A DNA stretch of 64,000 nt from NCBI GenBank assembly GCA_965242995.1, contig CBDETP010000003.1:18792-82791 (forward strand), read 5' to 3'. Made by a program: the position numbers. The stretch comes from Coxiellales bacterium. GTDB taxonomy: Bacteria > Pseudomonadota > Gammaproteobacteria > CBDETP01. Positions 48,001 to 54,000 of the stretch are shown piece after piece (positions within the stretch are counted from its first letter, which is position 1; the number at the start of each line of letters is the position of its first letter).

Positions 48001-51000
48001 AATTGGCATAGCCTTTGGTTTTGTTTGTGCTGCAGTTTATCTGTCTTATGATTTTTTTGTTAATAAGCTGTCTTGTATAAATAAATAAGACCACTAATTT
48101 GCATGCTTAATGGGTGTGAAATGTTGTGTTTGAAGTTCCAGTAATTGCCGCTAAAATCCCAATAATTGCGATTACAATAACGAATAGTTGAGCGTTGATT
48201 TTTAGCCATTTCAAACGAAAAACCACTCAGCGACAGACTTTTGATTGTTTTTCATGCTTAAAACCTTTGCCACAAAAAAAACTTTATTGTTACAAATTAA
48301 TCCGTTGAGGTTGTTTTTACTTTATTTTGACCTCTTGATATTTTCTTAATATTCATGGCGTATAATCTTCCTCATAGTTAGGAGTGTCACTCATTCGTTG
48401 TTGATGGTGGATGCTTCTAAAAATGCTGAAACATAAAACAAATACTACTATTTGGGAGATAGAAAATGCGAAAAGATACAAGAGAATGGTTAAGAAAAGG
48501 TGCTTTAAAAGATGTCGCAGATGATGGCAACAATCTTCAATATCTCCCTGAGGAATTCCGAGCTGATCGTGAGGCGGTCTTAGCTGCGGTGGCGTAAAAT
48601 GGTGAGGCGCTTAAATATGCCTCTGCCGAATTGCAAGGTAATGATGAGTTACAAAGAGTTGCCAGAAGAGAGCCTGGCTCTGCAGCAGAAGCAAAACCTG
48701 CTAAGAGTCTAAAAACGGCAGGCAATGCTTGATAACTGGCATTTTTCGAAGCAGCAGCATGTGCAAGACCTACCCAGGGGATAAAAAAAGCAACTTCAGC
48801 TCCAACCCTAACTCCGTAGCTAATAATTAACTTGGTAAAACAATAAATCTCCTCCTGTCTCCAGCATTTTTATGATGCTGGAGGTAAGATTAACTCTTAT
48901 TGATGGCGCTATCTTAGAAGTTTTCCAATATTTTTTTATGCTCCGGATTTAAATTTTCTTTATGTTCCTTTATTCTCTTTACACGCTCTGTCTCTTTTTC
49001 AGATTTAAAATATTTTGAGTTATAGTTATGAACAGCATTTATTCCTGGAAGGTAGTAGGGATGATTAGAGTATGATCATCTGCGCCACTCCTCTTTTATT
49101 CCAAGCGCCTTAACCCATTCATCATATCCACCAAGCAATAGGTAATAGAATCTTCCTTGCAAATATCATCCGCAGGGGGAAGAATATATCTGGCACAACT
49201 ATTAATGTTTCCCCGTATCATTGCTTTATGGATAACAGGTTCTTCCTTCCAAATATCATCCATAGGGTCAGCAAAACCAATTTTTGCCAGTGAAATTCTA
49301 TCCCCTATTTTCACTCCGTCACAATACAGCTGACACATTCCTAGAAAAATTCCATTCGTTTATTTCAGCTTATTGCCAATTCTGGTTTTGTCATGCGACC
49401 ATAGGATTAGTGTTGCCTTGCCTTGTATGTTTTTAATAGGAACCAGGGAAAACTGCTGATTTACAGAAGAAGAGTTAGGTGCGGCATTCATTTTCACTAA
49501 AACCATATTTGCTGGTATATGTATTGGCAAAGGATTTCTTTTAACAAAAGTCGAATCTTTTTGTAAGTATCTAGTTAGTTTAAAATTTAGTTGATTATTT
49601 AAGTATATATTATTGTTTTTTATTTGAAATTTACTTGATCCTAAAGCAAATATTTTTCTTATGTATATCTTAGTTCGAGGCTTCTCGTTTAGTTTGTAGA
49701 ATAAGATGTAAGAACCAATTTTTAATTTAGGGGTATGAAAAATAAAAATAGGGCGGCTTCGATATAGTATAGTAGTCATATGGAAACCAACAGGAAGTCC
49801 ATAATTCATTTTTGCTAAGAGTACATTTCCTCTTTTGAGAGTTGGGTCACTCGAACTTGCAAGAATTCTATAGTGCCGATATCCCGATGATAAAGCCGAG
49901 AAGTTTGCTAGAACATGTGAAAATATTGCATAAAGAATGTATAGATACCATTTGCTATAGTTCTTGAAATATATGCCATTTTTGTTACTGTTTAAACGGT
50001 ATGCATCAGCAATCATATAAATGAGTGTAAGTATAAGAGTCAGATATATGATGGCAGCTCCATAAAAAGAATTCATTAAACCTGAGAATCCTGTTATTGC
50101 CAATAAAATTATAATGCCAAATAAAAAAAACAGACCCCGCCGCATCTGTCCAGCAAATACATGTCCTAAACCAGGGCAAGTTATAGATAATAGAGCAATA
50201 ACGCCAGAGGACAAACGGCCTCGAATTTTAGTTAGGTTTTCCATGTGTATTTCCTCATTCTGATTTCATTTACTCGAACTATAGTGGGGGGTGGCTGGGT
50301 AAAGCAAGTATTACCGAGCACTCATCACAGAAGACTGCGAGGCTCTGTTGCCTTGGAATGCAAAGAAAAGAAATAGGAGAGTTACAAGTTTATAATTATA
50401 GTTGTTAATAATAAGCGTAGTAGAACAATAATAAAACCCCTGCCCCAGTATTCTAGAATACTGGGGGTAAGTTTTTTTAGTTAATTTTCTCTATATGGTT
50501 TCAATTGAAAATAAAATTCTTAATTACACTATTCATTATTAAAATTCAACGACAGTTTTTTCAGAAAAATCAGGCTATGTTAAGAGGCAAAAGTTGGAGC
50601 GCTTTTTGCCGGACTTTTGTCTGCGCCGGTGTAAATCACTTGTTTTTTGAGGAAGTAAATAACCAGCCGATTGAAAAATATTTTTTATTTAGATTTGTTT
50701 TTTATCATTATCATATGGTTGGGTTTTTTTTAAAGGAACGTCAGGGTGCAAAAAAGCTTAGGATGATGGCAAAAAATAGTTATTTATGTGGCGGATTTTG
50801 TTTATTTTTAAATGGAGAAGAATCTTTTAAAAAACGTTTATTTTCAATATTTTGTGTAAATTCTCAGGCAAACGATAGTACTATTTACTATACTTTCTTT
50901 GAGTAAAAAAAAGGAGGTATGCCATGATCACTTTTTCAGTCTTGACGACAGTTGCTTTTGTGTTGTTGTGGTTTTCATTGGTGGGTCGTTTGTTTTTCAA

Positions 51001-54000
51001 GAAAGGCCCAACGACGTCTGTTTTAAGTCCCGCGCATAATTGTGGCTTGGCTTTATTTGTCTCTGTTGCGTTAATCCTGCTGGTTGTCTCAGTGTGGATT
51101 TTTATATGATGGTTGAGTGGTGGGCATGATAATTTTTCATGTTTTTTTAAAAGGATTTTTTTAACTTTAAGGTAGTTGAAATTAAAAATACATAAATAGC
51201 GAGGTTATTATGAAAATTAAAAAAATAGGGTTATTTTTAGGGGGTATAGTACTTATGCTTGGTTTAGCTGGTTGTTCTAGTACTCAAAAGGGAGCCGCGA
51301 TTGGTGGTGGCGCAGGTGCTATTATTGGTGGATTAGCGACAAACAGTGTTGCTGGTGCTGCTATTGGTGGTGTTGGTGGTGCTTTAGTTGGTGGCGCGAT
51401 TGGACATGGCCAAAGATAGTGAAATTTAGTTAGCCAAGGATGGCTATATTTTTGTATTGCAAAGTGTGCAGGGATTAAGCGCTTATTTTAAGTCCATATG
51501 GCAACAATAGCCATTATAATAAATCCAACGACAACAAAAGAAAATTTACTAAGGCTGCAGCATTGTTTAATCATCACGGATTTTTCTAGGCCGTGCAGCG
51601 TACCTAAATATAGGAAAGTACCCGAGGCAAGCGATGAGAAAATTGGCTCTATCATGGGATTACTATTTAAATGCACGGTGGCTTCATTTCCAAGGATGAT
51701 TCCTAATGGGACCATTAAGGCAAAGATTGCAAATAATAGAATGCCCATTTTAATACTTAAATTACTTTTATTGATTTGCACCGCAAGCGAGAAGCTTGCA
51801 GCCCACTTGTGTGCAAGAATAGCAAGTAAAATAATAACACCCATGCTTAAAGACTGTGTTAAACCTAGTGCGGCACCTGCCAGAAAGCTGTGAATCGATA
51901 GCATAATGACCGCAAGAATCGCAAAAGCGTTGCTGCTGCCTTGGTGGTGGTAGATCTCTTTGCCGATGTGCTCAAGTAATAAGAAAAATAAGAAGGTGCC
52001 TCCAGCGAGTAAAAAGGCGATGGGGTAGTCAAAATGGAGCTGGTAAAAGCCTTGAGAGGCATCACCAAGCATGTGAATCAAGCCAGCACCAAGAAACACG
52101 CCTGCTGCGAGTGATTCGCCAATAGGGAAGTCGTAGCCTTGTTGGCTCTGCATCTTTTTAATAAATGGGTAGGCGCCAGATAAAACAGTAACGACAAGTA
52201 CAAGTAGTAGGCTGGTGATTTCAAATGCACTCATGGGCTAAAATCCTTGTGGGCGGGTAGGAGACTTTTTTAATCTTATTGCGTTGCTCTTGTCAAGTAT
52301 TTTACTTGGAAGAGACGTTTTTCTGTTCAATATGTACGCTGAGGTTTTTATTAACCGTTTGATTTTATTTAATAAAATATTTATTTGGTTAATGCTTGAG
52401 CTCTTGCTCAGGATTGATTAGAATGTCGTGTTTTTTTAAATTAATCCTTGCTCTACTAGTTTGGCTAGAAGGGCTACAATCCATGAGGAGATTCTATGCG
52501 ACATTATGAAATCGTATTCTTAGTTCATCCTGACCAAAGCAGTCAGGTTCCCGGCATGACTGATCGTTACAAAGCCACTATTCAAGATGCCGGCGGTAAG
52601 GTCCACCGTTTAGAAGATTGGGGCAGACGCCAGTTAGCTTATCCTATTAAGAAGGTGCATAAGGCACATTATGTCTTAATGAATATCGAGTGCGAAAAAG
52701 AAGTGGTTGATGAATTGACCAATGCTTTTCGCTATAACGATGCTATTTTGCGTAATCTAGTTCTTGTGAAAAAACAGGCAGAAACCAAGCCATCAATTAT
52801 GCTGCAAAATGCTAATAAGCCTGCAAGACGACCAAGGTATGAAAAGCCAGCAGATAAAGCACCACGTGCTGAGCCAGCAACTAAAGCGGCAGCTGACGAG
52901 TAATTAATTTTAATTTAAGAGGATTTTAAAGATGGCATATTATAAACCACAAAAGCAAAGCATCACGGGTGTTGTTGATTACAAAGACATTGATGTATTG
53001 AAAAATTTTATTATGGAAACAGGACGCATTGTACCTGCTCGCATCACTGGCGCGACGGCTTTACAACAGCGCCAATTGACTGGGGCAATTAAACTGGCCC
53101 GTTACTTGTCTTTGTTACCCTACTGCGATAGCCACGATTAATAGGTGATTGTCATATTATGCTAACCAAGGCCGCACAATTTTTATTAAAAAATAATACT
53201 AATGCCGCATTTGTGGCATTGCTGTTTGCTTTGTTCCCTTTTGTTAATTTACCGTTGGGTGGTTTTTTTGCTGCTCTTATTGTTGGTTTAGTAACGCTGC
53301 AAAAGGGTGCTAAGGACGGCTTTGTTATTCTTTTATGGGTAGCACTGCCCGTTACTGCGCTGTTGTTGTTGAAGCGAATTGGCTTGTTTGACATGCTCTT
53401 TTTGCGTTGTGTCTTGGTTTGGTTGTTTGCGATTGTTTTGTCAAAAAAGCATGGCTGGGTCCCAGTTTTAGCGCTCTCACTGTTGTTAGGCTTTATTGCT
53501 GTTATGGTGTTGCACTTTGTTTTAGGTGACCCAAGTGCCTGGTGGCTGCATAAGTTTCAAGGTTATTTGAATGTGGCACAGCAGGCTGGAGAGTTACAGG
53601 TAACACAACAAGAAATAAATCATGCCATGGGCTTGTTAGCGCCAGTGGCATCAGGTTTGGTTGTATTAGGTGTTTCCTTCAGCACACTTTTTGTGTTGAT
53701 TTTTGCTCGAGCATGGCAGTCGCATGTTTATTTCCCTGGTACTTTTAAGCAGGAAATTACACATATAAGGTTGGGCTATATTGCATTAGGCTTGATTGCA
53801 TTAAATGTTGTTGGGGCGGCGCTTGGCAGTAAAATGTTATTGGATTTTTTGCCAGTGTTGTCTTTTCCTTTCTTTGTGGCTGGGCTAAGTTTATTGCATT
53901 GTTTGGCGGGCAGGCGAAAATTGTTTTTAGGATTGCTGTTTTTGTCATACGCAATGCTAGTTTTTTTGCCGTTTTTTGCTTTGGTCGTTTGGTTTGTGGC

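Follow-up and report, generated by a model that had tools for sequence, protein, structure and literature searches.

OsmB/YmgG-type lipoproteins and ZupT-type transporters are encoded by ordinary chromosomal genes in many bacteria. The type I signal peptidases, among them LepB of Escherichia coli and SpsB of Staphylococcus aureus, belong to MEROPS family S26. SipA of Streptococcus pyogenes, a non-catalytic S26 homologue without the Ser and the Lys, is required for the assembly of pili (PMC4049620). We analyzed a region of a Coxiellales bacterium whose genes include those of an S26 (signal peptidase I)-like membrane protein, a lipoprotein of the glycine-zipper type, and a ZIP-family metal transporter. 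The region covers positions 48089-52495 of a 64-kb stretch of DNA, hereafter called the window, and lies between the gene of a MATE efflux transporter and rpsF. A first-pass annotation had described it as one 4.4-kb AT-rich accessory islet. We conclude that it consists of two things side by side, not of one islet. The left ~2.6 kb carry a DUF4116 pseudogene, an orphan reading frame designated orf80, and the S26-like gene, and we hold it about evenly probable that they are accessory DNA of old origin, in part ameliorated and in part decayed, with three small native genes alongside.

With the 64-kb window, not the whole genome, as the compositional reference, the GC content of 48089-52495 was 36.8%, compared with 40.6% in the remaining window, and only 3.8% of the same-size windows showed an equally low value. 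The 4.4-kb window with the lowest GC content, 46601-51007, takes in the MATE gene, and the lowest-GC 1 kb (32001-33000; 32.0%) lies outside the flagged region. Much of the GC dip arises because 42% of the region is non-coding, as opposed to 8% elsewhere in the window, and because spacers are AT-rich everywhere, with a GC content of 33% in the region and 36% elsewhere. Without the S26-like gene, the coding DNA of the region had a GC content of 42.6%, which is above the window coding mean of 41.1%. The S26-like gene, with 33% GC, is the sole truly AT-rich gene of the region. Thus, the dip that had been noticed by eye is accounted for mostly by spacers and a single AT-rich gene.

The oligonucleotide signature gave a sharper picture. 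By tetranucleotide and dinucleotide signature, no other 4.4-kb stretch of the window deviates as strongly as 48089-52495, with a tetranucleotide L1 distance of 0.231 versus 0.145 ± 0.024 and a Karlin delta* of 80 versus 36.6 ± 14.1. Synthetic mixtures that combined 42% spacer with 58% coding sequence from other parts of the window reached a delta* of only 27.6 ± 8; therefore, the spacer fraction alone fails to explain the signature. In 1.5-kb windows, the deviation was limited to ~48250-50750, with a peak delta* of 174 at 49001-50500, the maximum of the window. This segment, with a GC content of 33-37%, takes in the DUF4116 pseudogene, orf80, the S26-like gene, and their spacers. Positions 50750-52495 were normal (delta* 60-72, 39-41% GC), and the genes for a 61-aa (amino acid) membrane protein (tm61), the lipoprotein, and the ZIP transporter showed native composition and codon usage. 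Because the anomaly is confined to ~48250-50750, the atypical unit has about half of the proposed 4.4 kb. The claim of an atypical composition stands for this segment; the right-hand third has to be taken out of it.

The S26-like gene (49360-50244, minus strand) had the lowest GC content of more than 60 open reading frames (ORFs), 0.33 in total and 0.37, 0.35, and 0.28 at the first, second, and third codon positions (GC1, GC2, and GC3). The first-position value compares with a typical ~0.52. The codon score was ordinary for a minus-strand gene, and GC3 and codon usage were within the host range. We favor an old acquisition followed by amelioration because GC1 is very low while GC3 and codon usage are host-like. 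On this account, the left patch (~48.1-50.9 kb) would most likely be an ancient acquisition from a donor richer in AT. Later amelioration would have brought GC3 and codon usage to host-like values, with GC1 and the dinucleotide signature still lagging behind. Decay would have killed the one-repeat DUF4116 gene by an in-frame TAA, and no mobility machinery is left. Besides this pseudogene, the patch holds an orphan 80-codon ORF, a membrane-anchored signal peptidase I homologue, long spacers, and an orphan terminator. As points of decay we took the stop codon in the DUF4116 domain, the high non-coding share, the orphan terminator, and the truncation of the closest S26-like homologue. The right part (~50.9-52.5 kb) comprises three ordinary, compositionally native genes in divergent and convergent slots upstream of the rpsF operon. 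The earlier idea of an old insertion or accessory region survives for the left 2.6 kb, with its signature, its orphan orf80, and its S26-like homologues on AT-rich contigs, and finds no support for the native tm61, lipoprotein, and ZIP genes.

The DUF4116 pseudogene is an 88-codon frame on the plus strand (48466-48731). It follows a 377-bp AT-rich spacer (48089-48465; 33.2% GC) with no recognizable gene remnant. The in-frame TAA (codon 44, 48595-48597) falls inside the single DUF4116 repeat and splits it. Pfam DUF4116 (PF13475) matched the 43-aa ORF with 1.3e-6 and the frame read through the stop with 4.8e-13 (48.9 bits), the latter match covering residues 17-57 and straddling the stop. There was no DUF4116 match in an intact reading frame, as a good score required reading through the TAA. 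We conclude that the frame is a pseudogene. A hairpin with a 10-bp stem (48859-48883) lies between the pseudogene and the convergent orf80. Its fold z-scores of -4.25 on the plus strand and -3.50 on the minus strand were strong, and it is likely a two-way terminator. A 39-aa ORF on the minus strand (48107-48226), with a GTG start, runs convergent to the MATE 3' end and encodes one clean hydrophobic helix, VIVIAIIGILAAITG. Lacking both a ribosome-binding site and a family match, it is unlikely to be a gene.

The 80-aa orf80 (49096-49338, minus strand) starts 21 nt past the stop codon of the S26-like gene on the same strand. It contains an internal 90-nt (30-aa) repeat (D2, 80% over 40 nt) and has no well-spaced Shine-Dalgarno sequence. 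We found no homologue among 5.8 billion protein clusters and no match in Pfam, NCBIfam, PADLOC, or PHROGs, and its status as a gene is uncertain. Joining orf80 and the frames downstream of it (…YYLLLGGYDEWVKALGIKEEWRR*SYSNHPYYLPG…ENF) into one broken gene was rejected, as the conceptual 142-aa protein had no homologue and only a chance-level Pfam match (LidA coiled coil, E = 0.042). Six-frame translation of the four spacers, with Pfam searches on selected frames, revealed no gene remnants. The 679-bp spacer (50245-50923; 32.4% GC) includes a 133-aa ORF (50505-50906) with 29% GC, a TTG start, and no family match, which is probably not a gene. The same spacer holds a perfect 10-bp palindromic hairpin (50443-50466) that is preceded by an A-tract and followed by a T-tract and stands 199 bp ahead of the S26-like start. 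No ORF ends there. This element is a two-way intrinsic terminator and an orphan; it could mark the end of an unannotated small transcript from one strand or the other, or be the remnant of a lost gene. A candidate small RNA of 219 nt ending at this terminator (50262-50480, plus strand) was discarded, its fold being only modestly better than that of shuffled sequences (z = -2.36) and Rfam giving no match.

The S26-like protein (294 aa) is composed of an N-terminal multi-helix membrane domain, with weak similarity to DUF6677 and DUF5683, followed by the S26 domain. The latter matched the Pfam S26 profile PF10502 with 8.8e-9 (36 bits, cutoff 22.9), and the score against the signal-peptidase-I equivalog TIGR02227 was 46.0 bits, just under the cutoff of 47. 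An exhaustive HMMER search returned 1124 representatives at E <= 0.001. The homologues are mostly 260-310 aa long, with a membrane domain carrying a PGLGQxYxG motif and then the S26 domain, and the family profile matches the solved signal peptidases SpsB and LepB. In the motif columns of 145 family members, the nucleophilic Ser is conserved in 110, the general-base Lys in 97, and the 'GDN' of box E in 104. According to the alignment, the window protein retains Ser in the nucleophile column (box B, 'ASSSDPTL'; motif SGSMxPTL). The Lys column of box D (motif KRxxGxPGD) is occupied by Arg ('YIRKIFALGSS' versus the consensus 'FIKRVIG'). The protein has lost box E ('GDNRDxSxDSR'), whose columns hold 'KMNAAPNSSVNQ' ('MNAAPNSSVNQ'). 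Both losses also occur in the family members P0024, P0030, P0031, P0032, P0042, and P0046. The AlphaFold (AF2) model had a predicted local distance difference test score of 91.4 and a predicted template modeling score of 0.85, and Foldseek retrieved SpsB, LepB, and SipA with a probability of 1.0, the target template modeling (TM) score for SipA being 0.70. Because Lys and box E are lost while the fold is confidently predicted, the protein is probably intact but non-catalytic. Judged from motifs and model, its most likely role is to bind a peptide on the outer side of the inner membrane without cleaving it, by analogy with streptococcal SipA.

The closest homologues of the S26-like protein are encoded on contigs with 31-37% GC. 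Their neighborhoods are unrelated, with serS next to the homologue in one locus (L083) and a RelE/antitoxin pair in another (L088); a further homologue comes after small membrane proteins (L085 and L089-L091). Across 30 metagenomic or genomic loci, we found no conserved neighbors, and none of the window neighbors, orf80 included, travels along. The closest homologue of all, in L088 (GCA_021773295.1, JAJFKI010000101.1, 1820-2338), shares 53% identity over residues 1-144 and is only 172 aa long, with nothing but the membrane domain retained. Its neighbors are a DUF4431 mini-ORF and a RelE/HTH (helix-turn-helix) antitoxin pair. It seems unlikely, though not far-fetched, that the S26-like gene represents a clade, undescribed so far, of 'pseudo signal peptidases' that are anchored in the membrane and recur in AT-rich, probably host-associated bacteria. 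Such proteins would have replaced Lys by Arg or Gly, lost box E, and kept the fold and the N-terminal multi-helix domain, and they would act as non-catalytic peptide binders, in this case possibly with orf80. A signal-peptidase clade with lost catalytic motifs is the single lead of some wider interest here. If functional, such homologues would extend the SipA-type idea of a 'peptidase turned binder' to Gram-negative, probably intracellular, bacteria.

In the right part of the region, tm61 (50924-51109, plus strand) has two hydrophobic stretches and an AAGGAGG upstream; Pfam and NCBIfam gave no family match. The 69-aa lipoprotein (51210-51419, plus strand) carries the lipobox LAGC and matched Pfam Gly-zipper_YMGG with 30.3 bits (cutoff 28.9). 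With 22 bits against a cutoff of 98, it stays below the OsmB equivalog NF007830, and by its sequence we regard it as OsmB/YmgG-like in type only. Both tm61 and the lipoprotein are probably small envelope proteins, and their genes are perhaps co-transcribed. A short hairpin (51431-51446) between the convergent lipoprotein and ZIP genes is a weak candidate terminator. The ZIP gene (51488-52234, minus strand) is intact, full length, and has 42% GC and a codon usage typical of minus-strand genes. Its 248-aa product matched Pfam PF02535 (5e-26; 92.1 bits, cutoff 35.1) in two stretches corresponding to the N- and C-terminal halves, and presumably imports divalent metal ions. The divergent control region of ZIP and rpsF (52235-52495) contains the best promoter-like site for rpsF (52396-52424; TTGAGC, 17 nt, TAGAAT), which is a consensus match only.

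Six reading frames and four long spacers (377, 364, 679, and 261 bp) fill the interval between MATE and rpsF, and the genes are in mixed orientation. The left flank is formed by the housekeeping genes dut, a phosphomannomutase-type gene, xthA, and the MATE gene (46736-48088, plus strand; Pfam MatE 1.9e-44; TIGR00797, 174 bits, cutoff 147), the last with 37% GC and native codon usage. To the right, rpsF (52496-52903, plus strand) is the first gene of a block that continues with rpsR, a membrane protein gene, rplI, dnaB, and alr. All gene identifications of the first-pass annotation were borne out, as were the mixed orientation and the long spacers. Its several candidate promoters and terminators fared less well. 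We counted 20 promoter-like sites against a shuffled expectation of 15.3 ± 3.5 and 7 terminator-like sites against 3.9 ± 2.2, neither clearly above chance; what stood were the two strong hairpins at 48859-48883 and 50443-50466. Rfam gave no match at E <= 1 in 47500-53000, and no repeated elements were common to the region and the remaining window. A 16-nt perfect inverted repeat, TTTTATCTGGCGCCTA, has one arm in the MATE gene (47865-47880) and one in the ZIP gene (52170-52185), both encoding LSGAY with identical codons. With a BLAST E of 0.24 within the window, we took this repeat as probably due to chance and rejected it as a meaningful flanking repeat.

The databases searched contained no close relative of the host. 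All proteins of the region and its flanks were singletons at 90% identity. A genome scan anchored on RpsF gave at least 600 stretches; among the matches listed, there were only distant gammaproteobacteria with an RpsF identity of 55-74%, and none shared genes upstream of rpsF with the window. The closest overall among these listed matches was a Coxiellaceae-labelled metagenome-assembled genome (L016), with a DnaB identity of 68%. The best homologue of the membrane protein encoded between rpsR and rplI was 41% identical, and its homologues led to two further loci (L081 and L082). Upstream of rpsF, L016, L081, and L082 each carry different DNA. This position is a general synteny breakpoint, and the distant comparison is uninformative on an insertion in the window specifically. 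The host lineage is isolated, and comparative claims on its accessory genes will have to await further genomes. The membrane protein itself (53159-54061, plus strand) has 300 aa, is multi-pass, and has no Pfam or NCBIfam match. It lies inside the rpsF-rpsR-rplI operon, and homologues with 24-43% identity hold the same slot in many distant gammaproteobacterial loci. In dinucleotide deviation, its stretch ranks second in the window (delta* about 130).

The main rival to an old acquisition is that nothing was inserted at all. Native DNA in a poorly constrained slot at the rpsF-upstream breakpoint, with weakly selected small or dying genes drifting to AT and spacers accumulating, could give a similar region, and we treat this as a tentative but serious possibility. 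Several results count against an acquired patch and agree with native decay. We detected no integrase, recombinase, or transposase domain in the region ORFs or neighboring genes, no tRNA or tmRNA in the entire 64-kb window, and no convincing flanking direct repeats, just short ones of low identity. The first-pass annotation had already listed the lack of an integrase and a tRNA, correctly so. PADLOC found nothing in the region, and PHROGs returned only two weak matches to families of unknown function; a defense or phage origin was rejected. A conserved, syntenic gene native to its site, that of the membrane protein encoded between rpsR and rplI, reached a delta* of 132 in 1.5-kb windows; therefore, hydrophobic genes can deviate without being foreign. 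The S26-like ORF taken as a single gene had a delta* of 126 against a null of 81 ± 26, which is only about the 95th percentile of coding segments of equal length. Relaxed selection under AT-biased mutation also yields AT enrichment and odd signatures. The pseudogene, the high non-coding fraction, the codon usage of the S26-like and ZIP genes, typical of the minus strand, and the DNA upstream of rpsF, different in every distant relative, fit native decay as well. It accounts less well for the S26-like gene, whose low GC resides mainly at first positions, reflecting the protein composition of an AT-rich organism and not recent drift. Moreover, its homologues occur on AT-rich contigs in unrelated contexts, and a protein that is predicted to fold confidently is not simply decaying.

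A further explanation sees a working lineage-specific system in the S26-like gene and orf80, a functional two-gene module of a non-catalytic peptidase-like membrane receptor and a small partner or substrate; a divergent small RNA may end at 50443-50466. The close spacing of the two genes on one strand speaks for it, as do the confident fold and the recurrence of a clade with lost catalytic motifs in several organisms. The strong terminator upstream of the S26-like start, beside a GC-richer patch, would suit the small RNA. Yet orf80 has no homologue anywhere, none beside the S26-like homologues, and no convincing ribosome-binding site. The neighbors of the homologues are not conserved, Rfam gave no match, and the fold z-score of 50262-50480 comes mostly from the terminator hairpin itself. 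We consider such a module improbable. The non-catalytic role itself meets an objection, since a Lys stands one residue past the Arg of box D and the catalytic loss is read from the alignment alone. The old accessory patch beside native genes remains our preferred reading. The suggestion that lineage-specific biology is to be sought here more than anywhere else in the window is fair, in a weak sense, insofar as the orphan genes sit here, and overstated otherwise. Nothing in the region points to a new kind of system; the patch is small, gene-poor, and ordinary, and the finding matters little beyond the annotation of the host genome.

A few observations concern other parts of the window. At 31453-33128, a 415-aa ORF on the minus strand shows only a weak match to the major facilitator superfamily (30.8 bits, below cutoff). 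Its GC content is 35%, and its GC1, at 0.34, is unusually low; it is followed by a 428-bp spacer with 30% GC. The 571-bp spacer at 16710-17280 has a GC content of 45%, higher than that of coding DNA. Another spacer, of 701 bp (10175-10875), has a delta* of 138 around 10001-11500. Neither spacer had a gathering-level Rfam match. The sole Rfam match in the window is the t44 (rpsB leader) RNA at 13908-13998.

Compared with known systems, the region resembles genomic islets or ameliorating remnants in its atypical GC content and signature, its orphan and accessory genes, its pseudogene, and its site between core genes. It differs from islets in having no integrase, tRNA target, direct repeats, or transposase, and in that only ~2.6 kb are atypical. 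The lipoprotein and the transporter agree with OsmB/YmgG-type lipoproteins and ZupT-type ZIP transporters in the lipobox plus Gly-zipper domain and in the ZIP domain, respectively, although the lipoprotein falls far short of the score set for the OsmB equivalog. With type I signal peptidases, the S26-like protein shares the hidden Markov model match, the predicted fold, the Ser box B 'SSSDPTL', and an S26 domain placed after membrane helices. Unlike these enzymes, it has Arg for the catalytic Lys, no box E, an extra multi-helix N-terminal domain, and a TIGR02227 score below cutoff. SipA/LepA of S. pyogenes (PDB 4n31 and 4k8w), which likewise combines the S26 fold with an incomplete catalytic dyad, is its best target-normalized structural match. 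The S26-like protein, however, keeps the Ser and has no pilus or sortase genes nearby, whereas SipA sits in a Gram-positive pilus/sortase cluster. The host here is gammaproteobacterium-like and the homology no closer than the shared family; SipA serves as a working analogy for a role in binding instead of cleavage.

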